A DNA stretch of 64,000 nucleotides, taken from assembly GCF_055900595.2 (NCBI RefSeq), contig NZ_CM148325.1; one strand, 5' to 3'. The number at the start of each line of letters is the position of its first letter. Positions within the stretch are counted from its first letter, which is position 1. Under the pieces are notes generated by a model. It was not told the DNA's origin, ran no database searches, and saw nothing but the letters and a program-made list of their open reading frames with translations. The translations under genes and the position numbers were made by a program. Positions 1-40,187 of the stretch are shown piece after piece.

Positions 1-627
1 GTAACGCAGGGGCTTTCCGAAGCGGGTTATGTCATTGATGCCGTTTCTGATGGCAGAGATGGGCTTTATCTTGCGCTGAAGGATGATTATGCATTGATCA
101 TTCTGGATATTATGCTTCCGGGTATGGATGGCTGGCAGATCTTACAAACGTTAAGAACAGCAAAGCAAACCCCTGTTATTTGCCTTACTGCAAGGGATTC
201 TGTCGATGACAGAGTCAGAGGGCTGGACAGTGGAGCAAATGATTATTTGGTAAAACCTTTTTCATTTTCTGAGTTGCTGGCAAGGGTTCGGGCACAATTA
301 AGGCAACATCACGCTTTGAATTCAACATTAGAAATCAGTGGCTTAAGAATGGACTCTGTAAGTCAAAGTGTGAGCAGGGACAATATCAGCATTACACTGA
401 CGCGCAAGGAGTTTCAGTTACTTTGGCTACTGGCCTCCAGAGCTGGCGAAATTATACCCAGAACGGTTATTGCGAGTGAAATTTGGGGAATCAACTTTGA
501 TAGTGATACCAATACGGTGGATGTCGCCATTCGCAGGCTCCGCGCAAAAGTTGATGATCCTTTTCCTGAAAAGCTAATCGCCACAATCCGGGGGATGGGC
601 TATTCATTCGTAGCGGTAAAAAAATAA
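1..627 (+). CDS. hprR: OmpR-family response regulator HprR (YedW), 5'-truncated by window edge
   Basis: Frame 1 is open from nt 1; translation has receiver and winged-helix domains matching YedW; stop overlaps the next ATG (TAATG). Confidence 0.85.
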   Translation, partial: VTQGLSEAGYVIDAVSDGRDGLYLALKDDYALIILDIMLPGMDGWQILQTLRTAKQTPVICLTARDSVDDRVRGLDSGANDYLVKPFSFSELLARVRAQLRQHHALNSTLEISGLRMDSVSQSVSRDNISITLTRKEFQLLWLLASRAGEIIPRTVIASEIWGINFDSDTNTVDVAIRRLRAKVDDPFPEKLIATIRGMGYSFVAVKK

Positions 628-1985
628 TGAAAAGATTATCTATAACCGTCCGTTTAACCTTGCTTTTTATATTGCTGCTGTCTGTTGCTGGCGCTGGAAT
701 TGTCTGGACTCTCTATAATGGCCTGGCAAGTGAGTTGAAATGGCGCGATGATACAACACTCATTAACCGGACAGCACAGATCAAGCAGTTGTTAATTGAT
801 GGGGTAAATCCAGATACGTTACCTGTATACTTTAACCGGATGATGGATGTTAGTCAGGATATCTTGATCATTCATGGTGATGGCATCAATAAAATTGTTA
901 ACCGGACAAATGTCAGTGATGACATGTTAAATAACATACCTGCTAGTGAGACAATCAGCGCAGCTGGCATTTACAGAAGCATTATTAATGACACTGAGAT
1001 TGATGCTTTACGAATTAATATTGATGAAGTTTCGCCATCATTGACGGTTACTGTGGCTAAATTGGCTTCAGCCAGACATAACATGCTTGAACAGTATAAA
1101 ATTAATAGCATTATAATTTGCATTGTCGCCATTGTACTTTGCTCAGTATTAAGTCCGCTGTTAATCAGAACGGGATTACGAGAGATCAAAAAGTTGAGTG
1201 GTGTAACGGAAGCGCTGAATTATAACGATAGCCGGGAGCCTGTTGAGGTTAGCGCATTACCGAGAGAACTAAAACCTCTTGGGCAGGCGTTGAATAAAAT
1301 GCATCAAGCCTTAGTCAAAGATTTTGAACGCCTAAGTCAATTTGCTGACGATCTCGCTCATGAACTTAGAACGCCAATTAATGCATTACTGGGTCAGAAT
1401 CAGGTTACGCTCAGTCAAACCAGAAGTATCGCTGAATATCAAAAAACAATTGCCGGTAACATTGAAGAGCTGGAAAATATTTCGCGGTTAACAGAGAACA
1501 TACTGTTTCTTGCCAGGGCAGATAAAAACAATGTTTTGGTGAAACTGGACTCGCTTTCTCTCAATAAGGAAGTCGAAAATTTGTTGGACTATCTTGAATA
1601 TCTTTCAGACGAGAAAGAGATTTGCTTTAAGGTCGAGTGCAATCAGCAAATCTTTGCGGATAAAATTTTACTGCAACGAATGTTATCGAATCTTATTGTT
1701 AACGCCATTAGATATTCGCCAGAAAAATCGCGTATTCATATAACCAGTTTTCTTGATACCAACAGCTATCTTAATATTGATATCGCCAGCCCTGGAACGA
1801 AAATTAATGAGCCTGAAAAACTCTTCCGTAGATTTTGGCGGGGAGATAATTCGCGTCATTCCGTAGGTCAGGGACTTGGTCTTTCTTTAGTCAAAGCGAT
1901 TGCCGAATTACATGGGGGAAGTGCTACGTATCACTATCTCAATAAGCATAATGTGTTCCGGATTACGTTGCCGCAAAGAAATTAA
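627..1985 (+). CDS. hprS: Sensor histidine kinase HprS (YedV)
   Basis: 452-aa ORF with N-terminal TM segments, HAMP and HisKA/HATPase motifs (HELRTP, GLGLS); translationally coupled to hprR. Confidence 0.88.
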   Translation: MKRLSITVRLTLLFILLLSVAGAGIVWTLYNGLASELKWRDDTTLINRTAQIKQLLIDGVNPDTLPVYFNRMMDVSQDILIIHGDGINKIVNRTNVSDDMLNNIPASETISAAGIYRSIINDTEIDALRINIDEVSPSLTVTVAKLASARHNMLEQYKINSIIICIVAIVLCSVLSPLLIRTGLREIKKLSGVTEALNYNDSREPVEVSALPRELKPLGQALNKMHQALVKDFERLSQFADDLAHELRTPINALLGQNQVTLSQTRSIAEYQKTIAGNIEELENISRLTENILFLARADKNNVLVKLDSLSLNKEVENLLDYLEYLSDEKEICFKVECNQQIFADKILLQRMLSNLIVNAIRYSPEKSRIHITSFLDTNSYLNIDIASPGTKINEPEKLFRRFWRGDNSRHSVGQGLGLSLVKAIAELHGGSATYHYLNKHNVFRITLPQRN

Positions 1986-2092
1986 CATAGGGCTTCAGTA
2001 CGCCATAAATTAACCGTGAAAAAACGCAGCCACGTCGTGAATACTAACGCGGCTGCGATTGATTATGCGCTTACATTAAAACGTAACAGGGA

Positions 2093-2944
2093 TTAACCCG
2101 CGTAAGCTGCCAGCATTTCCTGCGCCGCCAGTTTACCCAACGCATTCGCTGAGAAAGGACTGTCGCCGGTGAGAAGTTTACGGTCCTTATGTACTCGCCC
2201 GGTGATGTCGTCATTAATGATGTTCATGCCCATTTTCTTCAGTTCTTCGCCGAAGTACCAGTTGAGATGACCCGGCATATAGCCTATCTCTGGCGTTTGT
2301 TTGTCAGCGGCGTCTGGGAATGCACAAATGGAATAACCATTCAGTGGGTTATCGCCGTGGCGAAGCGCCAGAAAAGCCGCCGGGCCGTGGCAAAGGGAGA
2401 TAACAAAACGGTCATTTTTGATTGCCCACTGTAAAGCAGCAGCCACGTCCTGGCTTTCTGGTAAACCAATAAGTGCGCCATGACCACCAGGAACAAAGAT
2501 TGCTGCATATTCGCTATCAGCGTTGAGGCTGGCGACAACATCCGCGAGTTTCTTCGGATTGCGGAACAACGATTTATGCTGCTCAAAGAATGGCATTACT
2601 TTTTCATCTTTGTGCGGCATAGCCCAGTATTCAAACTTGGTCATCAGACCGGAAATGGTCGCCACTTCGAATTCGAAACCTGCAGCATGGAGATGATACA
2701 ACGGCAGCAACGTTTCAATCGGATGGTTACCAGTCGAGAACAGTTTTCCGTTATCGGTCGGCAAATAACGTTCGTCCGCGGCGATCACCAGAATTTTATG
2801 CTTACCGCGATACGGTTTTGGATAGTCCACGCCATCAAGATCAGAGACGGGACTGGTATATTGGCTAAGCGAATATTCTGAAGGGAAGAATGCATTATCT
2901 TCAGCAATATCGACCTGCGGATTTTTACTTGTTTGAACAGTCAT
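2093..2944 (-). CDS. hchA: Hsp31 glyoxalase III / chaperone
   Basis: 283-aa ORF, DJ-1/PfpI family, translation matches HchA; ATG at 2944. Confidence 0.93.
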   Translation of the reverse strand: MTVQTSKNPQVDIAEDNAFFPSEYSLSQYTSPVSDLDGVDYPKPYRGKHKILVIAADERYLPTDNGKLFSTGNHPIETLLPLYHLHAAGFEFEVATISGLMTKFEYWAMPHKDEKVMPFFEQHKSLFRNPKKLADVVASLNADSEYAAIFVPGGHGALIGLPESQDVAAALQWAIKNDRFVISLCHGPAAFLALRHGDNPLNGYSICAFPDAADKQTPEIGYMPGHLNWYFGEELKKMGMNIINDDITGRVHKDRKLLTGDSPFSANALGKLAAQEMLAAYAG

Positions 2945-3307
2945 AGTGTATTCCTTATTGTTGCTTAGTTAGGGTAGTCACTATATTTGCGACTGAGCTG
3001 GTCGCTATTTTTAACCAGGCTGGAAAATTGAGTCAATATATCGAAAGCGGTAGTCGGCGGGTGTAAGTATGTAATGATGATGCTGCACTGGTGTTGAATA
3101 TTATTCACGCCAAATTTTCCTTATTGAGCAACGTCGTCGCAAGTGGCCTCAATGATTTTAGACCATTATCAGAGGTACGGGGCGGCGGGGAGAGATTTAG
3201 TGCTGTGGAATATTGTGGTGCTGATGAATATTTATATCCTGGATTGGTAGAGAAAAAGCTTATTTCATGCACTATTTTTGCAAATATTTCTATATGGGAA
3301 GCGTGTT

Positions 3308-3316
3308 TGTTACGGG
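3308..3316. repeat. Left copy of the 9-bp IS1 target-site duplication (TGTTACGGG)
   Basis: The identical 9-mer directly flanks both IS1 ends. Confidence 0.85.
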
Positions 3317-3371
3317 GGTGATGCTGCCAACTTACTGATTTAGTGTATGATGGTGTTTTTGAGGTGCTCCA

Positions 3372-3647
3372 GTGGCTTCTGTTTCTATCAGCTGTCCCTC
3401 CTGTTCAGCTACTGACGGGGTGGTGCGTAACGGCAAAAGCACCGCCGGACATCAGCGCTATCTCTGCTCTCACTGCCGTAAAACATGGCAACTGCAGTTC
3501 ACTTACACCGCTTCTCAACCCGGTACGCACCAGAAAATCATTGATATGGCCATGAATGGCGTTGGATGCCGGGCAACTGCCCGCATTATGGGCGTTGGCC
3601 TCAACACGATTTTACGTCACTTAAAAAACTCAGGCCGCAGTCGGTAA
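3372..3647 (+). CDS. insA: IS1 protein InsA
   Basis: 91-aa [24 protein letters not shown]..., Zn-finger/HTH InsA. Confidence 0.95.
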
Positions 3648-4069
3648 CCTCGCGCATACAGCCGGGCAGTGACGTCATCGTCTGCGCGGAAATGGACGAA
3701 CAGTGGGGCTATGTCGGGGCTAAATCGCGCCAGCGCTGGCTGTTTTACGCGTATGACAGGCTCCGGAAGACGGTTGTTGCGCACGTATTCGGTGAACGCA
3801 CTATGGCGACGCTGGGGCGTCTTATGAGCCTGCTGTCACCCTTTGACGTGGTGATATGGATGACGGATGGCTGGCCGCTGTATGAATCCCGCCTGAAGGG
3901 AAAGCTGCACGTAATCAGCAAGCGATATACGCAGCGAATTGAGCGGCATAACCTGAATCTGAGGCAGCACCTGGCACGGCTGGGACGGAAGTCGCTGTCG
4001 TTCTCAAAATCGGTGGAGCTGCATGACAAAGTCATCGGGCATTATCTGAACATAAAACACTATCAATAA
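3566..4069 (+). CDS. insB: IS1 InsB (transposase made as an InsAB' fusion by -1 frameshift)
   Basis: 167-aa ORF overlapping the insA 3' end in the -1 frame, the standard IS1 arrangement. Confidence 0.9.
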
Positions 4070-4084
4070 GTTGGAGTCATTACC

Positions 4085-4093
4085 TGTTACGGG
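4085..4093. repeat. Right copy of the 9-bp IS1 target-site duplication (TGTTACGGG)
   Basis: Identical to 3308..3316. Confidence 0.85.
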
Positions 4094-4313
4094 TTAATTC
4101 ATCAGAATGTGCATTTGGGGTGTTGGCTGGAAGAGTCGCTGGTAGATGTTATTGTGCCAGCAGGGGCAGGGTAAGGTACTGTATCGATATGCTTTGGCAA
4201 TTGCATGTGCCGCAGATGGAGATGAAATGCCAATAAAAAAGCCTGAGTTCGATGAGGGACGAACTCAGGCTAGTGTTAAGTTTTACAGTAACACGCCGCA
4301 GCGCGTTGGCTGA

Positions 4314-5429
4314 TTAGAACTGGTAGACGATACCAACTGCAAACTGGTCATCAGCTGCTGCGCCAGTAATGGCGGCGTCATCTTTATCCAGCATGTTGAA
4401 TTTGTATGCAGTATAAACGTTCATGTTCTTATTAAAGTAGTACCAGGTACCAACTTCAATGTAGTTCACACGGTCAGCGTCAACATATCTATGTCCAGGT
4501 ACCCCTTTGATATCTTTACCTTTAGAGTACACATAACCTAAGGACGGACGCAGACCAAAGTCGAATTGATACTGAACAACCGCTTCAAAGTTCTGGGTTT
4601 CATTGATAAGTTGATCACGCATTATTGTATTGCCTTCTCGATCGGCAACACCTGTATCAATAGAACCCGGAGTCATATTACGAGTTTCGCCGTACATTAC
4701 AGCTGCGTAGACATTGTTCGCGTCATACTTTGCAGCCAACGACCACAGTTCAGCATTTGAACCGTTTCCATCGGCAACTTGATCGTTGGTGCGATCAGAT
4801 TTGCTATATGCACCAACGATACCAAAACCATTGATGTTATAGTCTACAGACAACGCATAGCCGTCACCATTTTGTTTCTTAGTGCTACGGTTGCTGTTTT
4901 TGCCTTGGTACTGAATCGCAAAATCAAGACCATCAACCAGGCCAAAGAAATCATAGTTACGGTAGGTTGCAACACCGTTGGTACGACCATTCATGAAGTT
5001 GTCAGCGGAAGCCCAGGAATCGCCACCCCATTCAACTAACATATCGGTATAAGCTGCGGCATCATAAGCAACACCGTAGTTACGGCCATAGTCAAATGAT
5101 CCTAACTCGTTATATTTCAAACCGGCGAAGGTTAAACGGGTTTTTTCCTGGTTTTCACCTTCGGGCTTGCTGGCGTCGAGGTTGTATTCAAACTGACCAA
5201 AACCAGTCAGTTCGCTGGTGATTTGGGTTTCACCTTTAACACCGAAACGAGCATAGGAGGTATCTTCGTTTTCGCTGTTATTATCATCAGTATTTGACCA
5301 GATGCGTTCGCCAACCATCTTGCCGTAGAAATCAACTTTATTGCCATCTTTATTATAAATTTCAGCCGCATTTGCTGCGCCAGCAACTAATAACGCCGGG
5401 ACCAGCATTGCCAGAACTTTTCTTTTCAT
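4314..5429 (-). CDS. yedS: Outer-membrane general porin, OmpC/NmpC family, apparently intact
   Basis: Track ORF 4314..5459; start trimmed to [21 protein letters not shown] signal peptide; C-terminal ...GIVYQF beta-barrel signature. Confidence 0.8.
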
Positions 5430-5976
5430 TATGTATTCCCTTGTGATTATAATCTTCATGAATATATCAATAAGTGCCGTTATCCAAAAAAAAGCACATT
5501 TGGATACTATTCTATGAAGTTCATTTTATTTTAAGGATTACATGTAACAAATGTATTTAAAAGATTTCAAAATGTTTCTAATCTATTTAATATAATTCGG
5601 GATTATGAATTCTGAATATAAACATTCATGAATATTATAAATGCATATCAATAAGTTATGAGTTGAGCAGAAAGATAGGGGGTATCAATGATTGTTGCGC
5701 TAAACACCTGGTGTGATCACGCGCACATTAATGAAGGAATAAAAAAAGCCGGCATCATGCCGGCCCCAAAAATATAAACAAGACGATAAAAGGCTAATAA
5801 CGTAAGCATCATGACACAGAATAATAAAAAGGTATAATTGTAATCAGTGCTAATATATTGATTAAATGAATTAATAAAGCCGATATCAAAGATAAATAAA
5901 ATCGCTCAAAACGATTTTTCCTGTATTCACTGCCGTTGCGCAAAAATTATCTATTTGTTCAAAAAATGAGTGAGTC

Positions 5977-6360
5977 TTGACTGGCTCATCCAATGTGGAA
6001 AAATGTGACTTTTATCACATAATAGTACTAAGTCTGAATTTTCCGGGTTATCTCAAAATGGAATACGGTTCGACAAAGATGGAAGAGAGACTCTCTCGCA
6101 GCCCTGGCGGCAAACTGGCTTTGTGGGCTTTCTATACATGGTGTGGCTATTTCGTCTGGGCAATGGCGCGTTACATCTGGGTGATGAGCCGGATCCCCGA
6201 TGCCCCCGTGTCGGGATTTGAAAGCGATTTAGGCTCTACCGCGGGAAAGTGGTTAGGGGCACTGGTCGGATTTTTATTTATGGCTCTGGTCGGGGCATTG
6301 TTAGGCAGCATTGCCTGGTACACCCGACCTCGTCCCGCACGTAGCAGACGCTATGAATAA
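5977..6360 (+). CDS. yedR: Small inner-membrane protein YedR
   Basis: ORF with two predicted TM helices; start uncertain (TTG at 5977, GTG at 5995 or ATG at 6058). Confidence 0.55.
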   Translation: MTGSSNVEKCDFYHIIVLSLNFPGYLKMEYGSTKMEERLSRSPGGKLALWAFYTWCGYFVWAMARYIWVMSRIPDAPVSGFESDLGSTAGKWLGALVGFLFMALVGALLGSIAWYTRPRPARSRRYE

Positions 6361-6399
6361 AAACTGCTAAGGTGGCGACTCTTTGGCAACGGAGCGCGT

Positions 6400-7095
6400 A
6401 TGGACTTACAACACTGGCAGGCACAGTTCGAAAACTGGTTGAAAAACCATCATCAGCACCAGGACGCGGCCCATGACGTGTGTCATTTTCGCCGCGTCTG
6501 GGCTACGGCACAGAAGCTGGCGGCAGATGACGATGTCGATATGCTGGTGATTTTAACCGCCTGTTATTTTCACGATATTGTGAGCCTGGCGAAAAATCAT
6601 CCGCAAAGGCAGCGTTCTTCAATCCTGGCGGCAGAAGAGACGCGTCGCCTGCTCCGTGAAGAGTTCGAGCAATTTCCGGCGGAGAAAATCGAGGCCGTTT
6701 GTCATGCCATTGCCGCTCACAGTTTCAGCGCGCAAATCGCCCCCTTAACAACGGAAGCTAAAATTGTCCAGGATGCGGATCGGCTGGAAGCCCTGGGGGC
6801 GATTGGCCTGGCGCGCGTGTTTGCCGTTTCAGGGGCATTGGGCGTGGCGCTGTTTGATGGTGAAGATCCGTTCGCACAGCATCGCCCGCTTGATGATAAA
6901 CGCTACGCGCTGGATCATTTCCAGACTAAGTTGCTGAAGCTACCGCAAACCATGCAAACCGCAAGAGGCAAGCAGCTGGCGCAGCACAACGCGCATTTTT
7001 TAGTCGAGTTTATGGCGAAGCTCAGTGCCGAACTGGCGGGGGAGAATGAAGGTGTCGATCACAAGGTGATAGATGCGTTTTCATCCGCTGGCTGA
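6400..7095 (+). CDS. yedJ: HD-domain phosphohydrolase YedJ
   Basis: 231-aa ORF with an HD motif (CYFHDIV). Confidence 0.8.
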
Positions 7096-7161
7096 GCGCG
7101 TGGCCCTAAATGGCTGTAATTATGTTAACCTGTCGGCCATCTCAGATGGCCGGTGAAATCT

Positions 7162-8580
7162 ATGCAGGAAAATATATCAGTAACCGATTCATACAGCACC
7201 GGGAATGCCGCACAGGCAATGCTGGAGAAACTGCTGCAAATTTATGATGTTAAAACGTTGGTGGCGCAGCTTAATGGTGTAGGTGAGAATCACTGGAGCG
7301 CGGCAATTTTAAAACGTGCGCTGGCGAATGACTCGGCATGGCACCGTTTAAGTGAGAAAGAGTTCGCCCATCTGCAAACGTTATTACCCAAACCACCGGC
7401 ACATCATCCGCATTATGCGTTTCGCTTTATCGATCTATTCGCCGGAATTGGCGGCATCTGTCGCGGTTTTGAATCGATTGGCGGACAGTGCGTGTTTACC
7501 AGCGAATGGAACAAACATGCGGTACGCACTTATAAAGCCAACCATTATTGCGATCCGGCGACGCATCATTTTAATGAAGATATCCGCGACATCACCCTCA
7601 GCCATAAAGAAGGCGTGAGTGATGAGGCGGCGGCGGAACATATTCGTCAACACATTCCTGAACACGATGTTTTACTGGCCGGTTTCCCTTGTCAGCCATT
7701 TTCGCTGGCTGGCGTATCGAAAAAGAACTCGCTCGGGCGGGCGCACGGTTTTGCCTGCGATACCCAGGGCACGCTGTTTTTTGATGTGGTACGCATTATC
7801 GACGCGCGTCGTCCGGCGATGTTTGTGCTCGAAAACGTCAAAAACCTGAAAAGTCACGACCAGGGTAAAACGTTCCGCATCATCATGCAGACGCTGGACG
7901 AACTGGGCTATGACGTGGCTGATGCAGAAGATAATGGGCCAGACGATCCGAAAATCATCGACGGCAAACATTTTCTGCCGCAGCACCGTGAACGCATCGT
8001 GCTGGTGGGTTTTCGTCGCGATCTGAATCTGAAAGCCGATTTTACCCTGCGTGATATCAGCGAATGTTTCCCTGCGCAGCGAGTGACGCTGGCGCAGCTG
8101 TTGGACCCGATGGTCGAGGCGAAATATATCCTGACGCCGGTGCTGTGGAAGTACCTCTATCGATATGCGAAAAAACATCAGGCGCGCGGTAACGGCTTCG
8201 GTTATGGAATGGTTTATCCGAACAATCCGCAAAGCGTCACGCGTACGCTGTCTGCGCGTTATTACAAAGATGGCGCGGAAATTTTAATCGATCGCGGCTG
8301 GGATATGGCCAAAGGTGAGAAAGACTTTGACGATCCGCAGAATCAGCAACATCGTCCACGTCGGTTAACGCCTCGGGAATGCGCGCGCTTAATGGGTTTT
8401 GAAGCGCCGGGAGAAGCGAAATTCCGCATTCCGGTTTCGGACACTCAGGCCTATCGCCAGTTCGGTAACTCGGTGGTCGTGCCGGTCTTTGCCGCGGTGG
8501 CAAAACTGCTTGAGCCAAAAATCAAACAGGCGGTGGCGTTGCGTCAGCAAGAGGCACAACATGGCCGACGTTCACGATAA
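7162..8580 (+). CDS. dcm: DNA-cytosine C5 methyltransferase Dcm
   Basis: Motifs FAGIGG and PCQPFS; start trimmed to MQENISVTD (residue 4 of the track ORF). Confidence 0.92.
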
Positions 8581-9031
8581 GGCCACTCGCAGCAAAAATA
8601 TGCGCGCGATTGCCACGCGTTATACGGCGATAGAGAAGCGCCTCGCCAGTCTGTTAACCGGGCAGGGCCTGGCGTTTCGCGTTCAGGACGCCAGTCTGCC
8701 CGGACGTCCGGATTTTGTCGTTGATGAATATTGTTGCGTGATATTTACCCACGGCTGCTTCTGGCACCATCATCACTGCTATCTGTTTAAAGTGCCTGCG
8801 ACTCGAACCGAGTTCTGGCTGGAGAAGATAGGTAAAAATGTTGAGCGCGATCGCCGCGATATCAGTCGCTTGCAGGAACTCGGCTGGCGCGTATTGATTG
8901 TCTGGGAGTGCGCGTTACGTGGGCGCGAGAAGCTGACGGATGAAGCGCTTAGCGAGCGTCTGGAAGAGTGGATCTGCGGCGAAGGTGCCAGCGCGCAGAT
9001 CGACACGCAGGGGATTCATTTACTCGCTTGA
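8561..9031 (+). CDS. vsr: Very-short-patch repair endonuclease Vsr
   Basis: Start at [16 protein letters not shown]..., inside a longer track ORF; overlaps the dcm 3' end by 20 nt. Confidence 0.9.
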
Positions 9032-9940
9032 TGCGTCCTGAATAACTGGCGTAACTACGGGTTTTGCCGGGAAGAGATATTTTCCCAACGTGACCAGTAC
9101 CACCGCGAAGACAATTACGCCGAGCGCCAGCCATTCAATCTTCGACAGCGTTTCTCCGCCCAGTCCCGTACCCAGCAAGACCGCGACCACCGGGTTAACG
9201 TAGGCGTAACTGGTGGCGAGAGCCGGACTGACGTTGCGGATTAAATACATATAAGCGTTAATGGCGATAATCGAACCAAACAGCGCCAGATAGCCGACCG
9301 CAAGGAAGCCTGAAAGGGAAGGGAGCGCCGTCAGTTTTTCACCTGCAATCATCGACGCGATCATTAACACCACGCCTGCCGCCAGCATCTCAATCGCACC
9401 CGCCATCATCCCTACAGGTAAGGTAATGCGCGAGCCATAAACCGAGCCAAACGCCCAGCTAATCGAGCCGATTAAAATCAGAATCGCGCCCCACGGATTG
9501 CCGCTTAAATTTCCACCGCTATTGAGCATGATGATTCCGGCAAGCCCAATGGCAATACCCACCCATTCCAGTTTGCGCGTTTTAATGCCAAACAGGCGGC
9601 TGAAGCACAGGGTAAAGAGGGGCACGGTTGCAACCACTACGGCGGCGATGCCGGAAGGAACATTTTGATGTTCGGCAACCGTCACCATGCCATTACCGAC
9701 AGCCAGCAATAACAGGCCAATCAGCGCGGCATTGAGCAGAGGACGTAGCGGGGGGAGTTTGTGTCCGCGCAGTAGTAAAAATGCCAGCAATAAAATACCG
9801 GCTGCCAGGAATCGAACGCCCGCCATCATTAACGGAGGCCAGCTTTCCACGCCAATCCGAATGACAAAATAGGTTGAGCCCCAAATGATATACAACGCAA
9901 ACAGCGCGCCAAAAAGCGGTAATAACTGGCGGAAACGCAT
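9020..9940 (-). CDS. yedA: EamA/DMT-family transporter YedA
   Basis: 306-aa ORF, ten predicted TM helices, two EamA repeats. Confidence 0.82.
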   Translation of the reverse strand: MRFRQLLPLFGALFALYIIWGSTYFVIRIGVESWPPLMMAGVRFLAAGILLLAFLLLRGHKLPPLRPLLNAALIGLLLLAVGNGMVTVAEHQNVPSGIAAVVVATVPLFTLCFSRLFGIKTRKLEWVGIAIGLAGIIMLNSGGNLSGNPWGAILILIGSISWAFGSVYGSRITLPVGMMAGAIEMLAAGVVLMIASMIAGEKLTALPSLSGFLAVGYLALFGSIIAINAYMYLIRNVSPALATSYAYVNPVVAVLLGTGLGGETLSKIEWLALGVIVFAVVLVTLGKYLFPAKPVVTPVIQDASSE

Positions 9941-36478: not shown

Positions 36479-36888
36479 CAGACTGGGTCCTGAATCAAAG
36501 AAGGGGAGAGTAACGACTCTTTCCAGGCATCGGCAATATTGCGCATTAATGCTTCCACTTCTTCGACTGCGGAGACATCGTTGCGTAAATTGGCTTGCAG
36601 CAAGCGCCTGACCATATAGCTATAAAGAGCAATCAAGTTTTGGGTTAATTCGTCTTTGCTCTCTTCATCAAGACTCACCCGCAGTCCGTTCTCAATGATG
36701 TTGATCGCTTTTGACAAAGAGACGCCTTTGCCTTGCTGATTGTTGTCCTGCATAAACAGGCGCGCTCTAACCAGTGCGCTCAGCACTCCATCAAATAGCA
36801 TGGTGACCAGCTGCTGCTGGCTGGCGCTCATTACGGCGCTTTCGACGCCAATTTGTGCATAGGCTTTTGAGCCGCTCGCGGTATACAT
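36478..36888 (-). CDS. fliS: Flagellin-specific chaperone FliS
   Basis: 136-aa ORF. Confidence 0.92.
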
Positions 36889-36902
36889 GCTGACCTCCGT
36901 GA

Positions 36903-38315
36903 TCAGGAATTACTCATTGCAGTAAATTGTTGGCTGAGATAGGTACTGGTGTTATTCAGTTTGCTCATCATGGTATCTAATTGCGTAAACTGTGCAGTGT
37001 AACGCGCCACGGTGTCATCAATGCTGGCACTGACGGATAGATACTGTTTGGTCAGTTTTTTCAGTGTGGCGTTAATACTGTCCTGTGCGCTATCAATAAT
37101 GCCATCATCGGCAAGGTAACCTTTTACCTCGGTGGCAATTTTGGTGGTAATTCCTGTTTCTTTACCATCGCCTACCAGCAATTCACGTACGGATGCTGTA
37201 TTTTCATTCAGGACTTTTTTGAGTTTATCATCATCAATTTTCAGCTTACCCGTCGTGCCGTCCTGCTTAATCCCGATCTCGTTTAATGTTTTGAAGGCAC
37301 CGTCGCTGGCACCGTTTGCAAATTGTGCGCGGATGCCGCTTTGAATTGTACGTACAACGCTGTCTCCGAGAAGTGCACCATTATTTTTATCTTGTGCTTC
37401 AGCACCTGGGTCTACTTCTTTATATTTTGTCAGGGTGTTAAAGGTGTCAATGAGGGAGTTATATGAATCCACCCAGCCTTTAATTGCTTCGGTTGCTTTA
37501 TCGTTGCTTTTTGTCACCGTGACCCGGACGTCAGTGACTTTTTTGGTCAAATCGAGAGTCACTCCCTGAGGAGCATCGGTAATTTTGTTACTTGAACGTT
37601 CAATATCGATACCGTTAACGTTTAGCTGTGCATTTTGCGCGTTAACCAGTTCCTTCATATTCCCGGTGTTGGTCTTGCTGTCATAAGCCAGCAGATCATT
37701 TAATTTACTGTCACCCTCAACAGATATGGTCATTTTATTGGCCAGACCTTCACTGGCGGTCAATACCAATTGATAGTTACCATCTTTGACTTTAACGATA
37801 CTAGCGGAAATTCCACTATCGGCATCGTTAATGGCTTTGCTGATCTCATCCAATGACGTCTGATCTTTATTGAGCTTGATTTCCAGCGGCTCTTTACGAC
37901 CGTCTTGGGTAATTTTTATTGTGCGTGTATCTGATGACTCATCACCCAGTGCATCTTTTGTTGATGCAATGATTGTCGGGGAATCAGTTCGTAAAGATTG
38001 CGCCTGCGCCAGTTGGGTTACGCTGATGGTATAGATACCGGGAGCAGCACCTGCTTCGGTGGAAACTTTAAGGTCTTCATTGCTACTGGTAACGGTAGTG
38101 CTTTTGAACAGATCGGCTTTATTTAACGCAGTATTTGCAGTCTGGAATTTTTCTAATGCACTTTTTAATGTGCCATAGGCTGTCAGACGTGCGGTATTGT
38201 CACTCTGTTGCTGAGTAATTGGGTTTAAGCGTTTTTTTTCAGCGATGGTCAGGTTGTTTAGCAATGTATCCAGCGGCAGATTCGAACCAACGCCAAGAGA
38301 TGTAAATGAAGCCAT
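36903..38315 (-). CDS. fliD: Flagellar filament cap protein FliD
   Basis: Start trimmed to MASFTSLGVGSNLPL (residue 27 of the track ORF). Confidence 0.88.
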   Translation of the reverse strand: MASFTSLGVGSNLPLDTLLNNLTIAEKKRLNPITQQQSDNTARLTAYGTLKSALEKFQTANTALNKADLFKSTTVTSSNEDLKVSTEAGAAPGIYTISVTQLAQAQSLRTDSPTIIASTKDALGDESSDTRTIKITQDGRKEPLEIKLNKDQTSLDEISKAINDADSGISASIVKVKDGNYQLVLTASEGLANKMTISVEGDSKLNDLLAYDSKTNTGNMKELVNAQNAQLNVNGIDIERSSNKITDAPQGVTLDLTKKVTDVRVTVTKSNDKATEAIKGWVDSYNSLIDTFNTLTKYKEVDPGAEAQDKNNGALLGDSVVRTIQSGIRAQFANGASDGAFKTLNEIGIKQDGTTGKLKIDDDKLKKVLNENTASVRELLVGDGKETGITTKIATEVKGYLADDGIIDSAQDSINATLKKLTKQYLSVSASIDDTVARYTAQFTQLDTMMSKLNNTSTYLSQQFTAMSNS

Positions 38316-38473
38316 ACCTAATTCCTTTTGATTGCAAACAGTAGATAAGCGGGTTATCGGCAATTTGTGCGCAAAGTTTAATAGTTGATTCACGAAGATG
38401 ATGCGCAGAGTAGAGTTGTATATTACGGATATTTCAGCCGTTAAGAAAAAACAGGAGAGAAACTAAAATTTTC

Positions 38474-38500
38474 TAAAGTTCGAAATTCAGGTGCCGATAC
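38474..38500 (+). promoter_or_regulatory. Sigma-28 (FliA) class 3 promoter of fliC
   Basis: TAAAGTTC-N11-GCCGATAC, close to the sigma-28 consensus TAAAGTTT-N11-GCCGATAA, about 70 nt upstream of the fliC ATG. Confidence 0.8.
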
Positions 38501-38569
38501 AAGGGGTACGGTGAGAAACCGTGGGCAACAGCCCAATAACATCAAGTTGTAATTGATAAGGAAAAGATC

Positions 38570-40144
38570 ATGGCACAAGTCATTAATACAAACAGCCTGT
38601 CGCTGTTGACCCAGAATAACCTGAACAAATCTCAGTCTTCTCTGAGCTCCGCCATTGAACGTCTCTCTTCTGGCCTGCGTATTAACAGTGCTAAAGATGA
38701 CGCAGCAGGTCAGGCGATTGCTAACCGTTTTACAGCAAATATTAAAGGTCTGACTCAGGCTTCCCGTAACGCGAATGATGGTATTTCTGTTGCGCAGACC
38801 ACTGAAGGTGCGCTTTCTGAAATCAACAATAACTTACAGCGTATTCGTGAATTGTCAGTACAGGCCACTAATGGTACAAACTCTGACTCCGACCTGAATT
38901 CAATTCAGGATGAAATTACACAACGCCTTAGTGAAATTGATCGTGTTTCTAACCAGACACAATTTAATGGTGTAAAAGTTCTGGCTTCTGATCAGACTAT
39001 GAAAATTCAAGTAGGTGCGAACGATGGTGAAACCATTGAGATTGCCCTTGATAAAATTGATGCTAAAACCTTGGGGCTTGATAACTTTAGCGTAGCACCA
39101 GGAAAAGTTCCAATGTCCTCTGCGGTTGCACTTAAGAGCGAAGCCGCTCCTGACTTAACTAAGGTAAATGCAACTGATGGTAGTGTGGGAGGTGCTAAAG
39201 CATTCGGTAGCAATTATAAAAATGCTGATGTTGAAACTTATTTTGGTACCGGTAATGTACAAGATACAAAGGATACAACTGATGCGACCGGTACTGCAGG
39301 AACAAAAGTTTATCAAGTACAGGTGGAAGGGCAGACTTATTTTGTTGGTCAAGATAATAATACCAACACGAACGGTTTTACATTATTGAAACAAAACTCT
39401 ACAGGTTATGAAAAAGTTCAGGTGGGTGGTAAGGATGTTCAGTTAGCAAACTTTGGTGGTCGTATAACTGCATTTGTTGAAGATAATGGTTCTGCCACAT
39501 CAGTTGATTTAGCTGCGGGTAAAATGGGTAAAGCATTAGCTTATAATGATGCACCAATGTCTGTTTATTTTGGGGGAAAAAACCTAGATGTCCACCAAGT
39601 ACAAGATACCCAAGGGAATCCTGTACCTAATTCATTTGCTGCTAAAACATCAGACGGCACCTACATTGCAGTAAATGTAGATGCCGCTACAGGTAACACG
39701 TCTGTTATTACTGATCCTAATGGTAAGGCAGTTGAATGGGCAGTAAAAAATGATGGTTCTGCACAGGCAATTATGCGTGAAGATGATAAGGTTTATACAG
39801 CCAATATCACGAATAAGACGGCAACCAAAGGTGCTGAACTCAGTGCCTCAGATTTGAAAGCCTTAGCAACCACAAATCCATTATCCAAATTAGACGAAGC
39901 TTTGGCAAAAGTTGATAAGTTGCGCAGTTCTTTGGGTGCAGTACAAAACCGTTTCGACTCTGCCATCACCAACCTTGGCAACACCGTAAACAACCTGTCT
40001 TCTGCCCGTAGCCGTATAGAAGATGCTGACTACGCAACCGAAGTGTCTAACATGTCTCGTGCGCAGATCCTGCAACAAGCGGGTACCTCTGTTCTGGCAC
40101 AGGCTAACCAGACCACGCAGAACGTACTGTCTCTGCTGCGTTAA
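38570..40144 (+). CDS. fliC: Flagellin FliC (H antigen), 524 aa
   Basis: Conserved N- and C-terminal flagellin domains ([22 protein letters not shown]... / ...QNVLSLLR) around a divergent central domain. Confidence 0.95.
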
Positions 40145-40160
40145 TTTACACTTATCGCTC

Positions 40161-40187
40161 AAACCCCGCCACCGGCGGGGTTTTTTC
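40161..40187 (+). terminator. Rho-independent terminator of fliC
   Basis: CCCCGCC-ACC-GGCGGGG hairpin followed by TTTTTT. Confidence 0.8.

Follow-up and report, generated by a model that had tools for sequence, protein, structure and literature searches.

The dcm and vsr genes in the window (the whole 64 000 nt stretch of DNA analysed here, from contig NZ_CM148325.1 of RefSeq assembly GCF_055900595.2) are the standard chromosomal pair of Escherichia coli, a reading to which we assign a probability of about 97 %. In this reading vsr begins at the ATG at 8561, within the 3' end of dcm, is carried with dcm on a shared mRNA and is probably coupled to it in translation. The coordinates, reading frames, vsr start, protein families and identity to K-12 can be read directly from the DNA and its comparisons; that the genes are co-transcribed, and that Vsr is lost when dcm has an early nonsense mutation, is taken from the literature. 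The features concerned are:

7162..8580, plus strand: dcm, DNA-cytosine (C5) methyltransferase, 472 aa (NF007772, PF00145 and PF18284, identity to K-12, RefSeq annotation in strain H1827/12).
8561..9031, plus strand: vsr, very-short-patch-repair T:G mismatch endonuclease, 156 aa (TIGR00632, PF03852, PDB 1CW0, identity to K-12).
8561..8580, plus strand: overlap of dcm and vsr, 20 nt with the dcm TAA counted, vsr being in frame +1 (sequence, K-12, H1827/12, E597, M171-1 and ETEC1701).

The vsr ATG (8561-8563) lies inside dcm, which ends with the TAA at 8578-8580, and the reading frame of vsr is shifted by +1 against that of dcm, as (8561-7162) mod 3 = 1. From 8560 to 8580 the DNA reads c ATG GCC GAC GTT CAC GAT AA. 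The dcm codons at this end are CAT GGC CGA CGT TCA CGA TAA (H G R R S R stop, His467 being the first), and the vsr frame, one base along, is read as ATG GCC GAC GTT CAC GAT AAG (M A D V H D K). The shared stretch consists, on the dcm side, of 2 nt of the His467 codon followed by Gly-Arg-Arg-Ser-Arg-stop and, on the vsr side, of Met-Ala-Asp-Val-His-Asp followed by 2 nt of the Lys7 codon. The first-pass annotation had placed the vsr ATG at 8561 in the last codons of dcm, in another frame and with a 20-nt overlap, and both coordinates and frames agree with the sequence. The figure of 20 nt holds with the refinement that it counts the dcm stop codon; sense overlaps sense over 17 nt.

The identity of both genes is secure. 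The Dcm product (7162..8577) scored 949 bits against NF007772 (cutoff 710), with residues 1-469 covered, and also matched TIGR00675 (347.5 bits) and the Pfam families PF00145 and PF18284. Motif I (FAGIGG) and the catalytic Pro-Cys of motif IV (GFPCQ, Cys177) are both intact. The dcm ORF in the mechanical list (475 aa, 7153..8580) begins at a GTG at 7153, three codons ahead of the annotated ATG at 7162; the start at 7162 is backed over this GTG by the Dcm profile and by RefSeq. The Vsr product (8561..9028) scored 176.5 bits (E 2e-52, cutoff 97.85) against TIGR00632, profile positions 1-119 falling on residues 1-118, and 126.8 bits (cutoff 27) against PF03852, and matched PDB 1CW0 with an E value of 6.5e-103. 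Residues D51, H64, H69 and D97, which we take from the 1CW0/1VSR structures to be the catalytic residues of E. coli Vsr, and C66, H71, C73 and C117, which we take to be its zinc ligands, are all kept and are near-invariant in 115 homologues. We infer that this Dcm methylates the inner C of CCWGG, because 469 of its 472 residues are identical to those of K-12 Dcm, and that this Vsr nicks CTWGG sites with a T:G mismatch on the 5' side of the T, because it shares 98 % amino acid identity (3 substitutions in 156 residues) with the biochemically characterised K-12 Vsr (1CW0).

In K-12 MG1655, RefSeq places vsr at 2030448..2030918 and dcm at 2030899..2032317, which gives the same 20-nt overlap. The two genes (b1961-b1960) are the same as those in the window and have the same order, strand relation and +1 frame, and the flanks also agree, with yedJ upstream and a convergent yedA that overlaps the tail of vsr by 12 nt. 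When aligned with K-12, dcm is 99.65 % identical at the nucleotide level, the 5 differences leading to R100C, T384K and L393Q in the window, and vsr is 98.51 % identical, with 7 differences that lead to D21Y, R58C and T131S; over 50 nt the junction is identical. The first-pass annotation had called the arrangement a known one linking the cytosine methylase to the endonuclease that repairs T:G mismatches, and on both points it accords with the literature (PMC4444293, PMC2715241, PMC4924334) as well as with the K-12 RefSeq annotation. The window carries the K-12 dcm–vsr arrangement itself in another E. coli strain, with every sequence-level feature that defines it.

The arrangement is also general in E. 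coli. Of 5426 complete E. coli genomes, 5318 contain a 61-mer that spans the junction, 3335 of them as an exact match. Three strains with variant junctions (E597, M171-1 and ETEC1701) keep the annotated 20-nt overlap, and the changes found among the variants are H467Y in dcm, from the base just ahead of the ATG, and A2V in Vsr, from a change silent in dcm.

The window is from an E. coli chromosome. Many complete E. coli chromosomes match the segment 7100-9100 at 100 % identity; RefSeq annotates dcm, vsr and yedA in them, and the annotation of one, that of strain H1827/12, maps onto 7162..8580 (dcm) and 8561..9031 (vsr). Colinearity with H1827/12 over the whole window was considered and rejected, as it breaks upstream of 5853, where the position of IS1 differs, and across fliC. 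The window has a copy of IS1 at 3317-4084 (in the region 2739-5852), approximately 3 kb upstream of drpB-yedJ-dcm-vsr, and it differs in position and orientation from the IS1A of H1827/12, a strain otherwise identical across dcm-vsr. For window positions 1-7100 the best match among the complete genomes in the collection was 98.0 %, in three pieces. The variable region of fliC (flagellin, H-antigen) at 36865-40163 fails to align with H1827/12, but other strains, O6:H16 isolates among them, match it at 100 % identity; the difference is ordinary serotype variation.

Three of the substitutions relative to K-12 are rare and non-conservative, and they fall on conserved positions, which nearly all homologues fill with a basic or an acidic residue. 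Searched with 51-mers that match only when the allele of the window is present, 5426 E. coli genomes gave 31 with Dcm R100C (codon 100, window position 7459), 48 with Vsr D21Y (codon 21, 8621) and 214 with Vsr R58C (codon 58, 8732 and 8734). In a set of 115 diverse Vsr homologues, residue 21 is D in 66, N in 36 and G in 7, and residue 58 is R in 66 and K in 29; none has Y at the first or C at the second. Of 17 Dcm-like methylases, 14 have R at position 100 and one has K; this is the residue directly after motif I, Arg or Lys in the Dcm-like homologues and Cys in the window. The Dcm and Vsr of the window are presumed to function as in K-12 despite R100C, D21Y and R58C. It is improbable that the strain belongs to a lineage in which these three substitutions have jointly weakened the pair. 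Were it so, both methylation and very-short-patch repair could be reduced, and a methylase and its dedicated repair enzyme would be decaying together.

Five results, each independent of the others, place the true start of vsr at the ATG at 8561. In the mechanical ORF list, as noted in the first-pass annotation, vsr is fused into a longer ORF (8399..9031) that starts with TTG and encodes 210 aa. This ORF is an artefact of mechanical stop-to-stop ORF calling. Two further features bear on the start:

8549..8554, plus strand: AAGAGG, a putative Shine-Dalgarno sequence 6 nt ahead of the vsr ATG and within dcm codons (read from the sequence).
8399..8560, plus strand: stretch open in the vsr frame and non-coding in that frame (no Pfam match, Vsr profile stopping short of it, stops in relatives, variable sites).

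The alternative is a longer Vsr that starts at one of the in-frame TTG codons upstream (8399, 8489 or 8510), in which case the overlap with dcm would be 71-182 nt. The vsr frame is indeed open back to a TAA at 8390 and contains these three TTG codons, but the chance that any of them is used is close to nil. When the 210-aa ORF was scanned with the Vsr profile, the match began at residue 55, the Met at 8561, and the chain of the crystallised full-length K-12 Vsr (PDB 1CW0) begins ADVHDK, that is, at residue 2 (Ala2); the Vsr N-terminus does not align to a different start, the outcome that would have counted against the earlier annotation. The 54-aa extension upstream of the ATG has no Pfam match. 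No sequence resembling a Shine-Dalgarno was found ahead of the TTGs at 8399, 8489 or 8510, whereas the AAGAGG ahead of the ATG is identical in K-12 and in Escherichia albertii. In E. albertii, where the junction is otherwise the same, the vsr frame has a TAG nine codons upstream of the ATG and no start codon in between, and in Enterobacter sp. BIGb0383 a stop lies 17 codons upstream of the start.

Natural variation points the same way. In a comparison of three other E. coli strains with the window, in which upstream sites were sampled from 8331, there were eight distinct variable sites in 8331-8560. Six of the eight are silent in dcm (the exceptions are Q393L and H467Y), and seven would alter the vsr frame, giving six amino acid changes and one stop. 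Past 8561, the majority of the changes in these strains are silent in vsr. Between them the profile, 1CW0, the stops in relatives, the variable sites and the lack of a Pfam match effectively refute a longer isoform from an upstream TTG.

With the start of vsr at 8561, the pair sits in the following surroundings:

5811..5838, plus strand: candidate promoter upstream of drpB, the best sigma-70-like match (11 of 12 positions; consensus scan).
6079..6360, plus strand: drpB (yedR), mapped from the H1827/12 annotation and reported to be co-transcribed with dcm-vsr.
6400..7095, plus strand: yedJ, mapped from the H1827/12 annotation and reported to be co-transcribed with dcm-vsr.
9020..9940, minus strand: yedA, convergent, its 3' end overlapping that of vsr by 12 nt (9020..9031) (ORF list, K-12 and H1827/12 annotation).

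As vsr starts 20 nt before the end of dcm and out of frame with it, there is neither an intergenic space nor a promoter of its own. The consensus scan found no sigma-70-like promoter on the plus strand from 6023 to 9861, hence none in dcm ahead of vsr, and an internal promoter within dcm serving vsr was rejected on this basis. No credible terminator was found on the plus strand between dcm and vsr. The vsr stop codon (9029-9031) sits in the 3' end of yedA, the 12-nt overlap being tail to tail as in K-12, so that vsr overlaps a neighbour at each end, and there is no terminator-like site on the plus strand between vsr and yedA.

Published work describes dcm and vsr as an operon (PMC4924334, PMC12907096) in which dcm partially overlaps vsr (PMC4444293), and full-length transcripts obtained by SMRT-Cappable-seq place yedR, yedJ, dcm and vsr in one operon (PMC6131387). 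A single transcript with Vsr synthesis dependent on dcm translation comes from the literature (PMC4444293, PMC4924334, PMC6131387) and is consistent with the lack of a promoter-like site in dcm.

The pair can be pictured to work as follows. Dcm would methylate the inner cytosine of CCWGG, deamination of the 5-methylcytosine would give a T:G mismatch, and Vsr would nick 5' of the T, leading to very-short-patch repair. A single mRNA, probably beginning upstream of drpB and yedJ, would give both proteins. Ribosomes would load for vsr at the AAGAGG inside the dcm codons. Since ribosomes translating dcm would cross this site and stop 17 nt past the vsr ATG, Vsr synthesis may depend on translation of dcm, i.e. 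be translationally coupled to it. Vsr levels are said to go up in stationary phase, as Macintyre et al. reportedly found. An mRNA hairpin was considered as the basis of the coupling and dropped. When 8500-8620 was folded, a predicted hairpin (8530-8590) enclosed the Shine-Dalgarno sequence and the ATG, but its stability did not exceed that of shuffled sequence (z -1.5; of 200 shuffles, 19 folded equally well), and unfolding by dcm ribosomes is thus without structural support here. A literature search for translational coupling of vsr and dcm found nothing.

It is possible, if rather doubtful, that the overlap has no regulatory role. It would then be a neutral by-product of a shifted dcm stop, and vsr would be translated independently from a Shine-Dalgarno sequence of its own, which is a good one; the lack of significant RNA structure would fit. 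Against this stand the absence of a promoter-like site in dcm ahead of vsr and the loss of Vsr activity caused by an early dcm nonsense mutation. The mutation is dcm-6, in codon 45, and it abolishes vsr activity as well (PMC4444293, which cites Dar & Bhagwat 1993); this loss could also be explained by transcriptional polarity. Dar and Bhagwat are moreover said to have found, in 1993, that translation of Vsr begins at a start of its own on the dcm–vsr mRNA and that its efficient synthesis needs translation of dcm upstream.

The junctions of methylase–vsr pairs in other bacteria speak in favour of a neutral overlap. One genome per species in genome_contigs was scanned for the Vsr motif F-x-H-G-C-F-W-H, which yielded at least 120 loci, and phmmer identified every one of the 121 motif-bearing ORFs among the matches listed as a Vsr homologue. 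A C5-methyltransferase was found in the fetched flank for 65 of these 121, usually adjacent to vsr on the same strand and on either side of it. Among the matches listed, the methylase lies directly upstream in 22 cases, spread over diverse phyla; their junctions run from a gap of 305 nt to overlaps of 1, 4, 8, 14 and 20 nt, the last of these only in Escherichia and one Enterobacter. Pairs elsewhere, such as those of Neisseria and Caulobacter (ScmA/VsrA), link a Vsr endonuclease to a C5 methylase as here (PMC12907096). Unlike the 20 nt of the K-12 type, the geometry of the junction in other bacteria is variable.

Nor is the overlap conserved among close relatives. E. albertii has the 20-nt overlap, as does Enterobacter sp. 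BIGb0383 with a GTG vsr start, and Superficieibacter electus has a 14-nt overlap, also with a GTG start. In Enterobacter sp. Ag1 the two genes do not overlap: Dcm ends ...KQAVKKR 12 nt ahead of the vsr ATG, followed by TAAgcggagaaagaaATG, and the 12-nt gap has its own GGAG. The E. coli Dcm runs approximately 11 residues past the point where the Ag1 Dcm ends. The poorly conserved Dcm tail differs by genus (HGRRSR, SGGRSR, SGGRP) while the Vsr N-terminus is conserved, and for this reason the overlap looks to have arisen by extension of the dcm frame into the 5' end of vsr, which is under constraint. Judged from these sequences, the 20-nt overlap is a lineage feature of Escherichia and a few relatives that stems from the variable Dcm tail, and is not general to methylase–vsr pairs. 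Whether the overlap is neutral concerns only its importance, and a neutral overlap is compatible with the gene model given here.

Two vsr genes without a methylase directly upstream were also seen. In Enterobacter sp. Bisph1 a close vsr orthologue (E 4e-85), which starts near 3480 in minus-strand orientation, directly follows an unrelated 238-aa ORF and has no C5-methylase upstream. E. albertii has a second, distant vsr homologue (E 1e-29; locus L054) with no methylase directly upstream. Both are possibly 'orphan' vsr genes.

The dcm–vsr overlap in the window was read correctly, but the arrangement has long been known and nothing in it is new. Its practical value is for annotation, in that vsr starts at the ATG at 8561 and not at the TTG at 8399 of the mechanical ORF list. 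The biology has been textbook since about 1990: a methylase that puts the DNA at risk of mutation travels, and is expressed, with the enzyme that repairs its damage.
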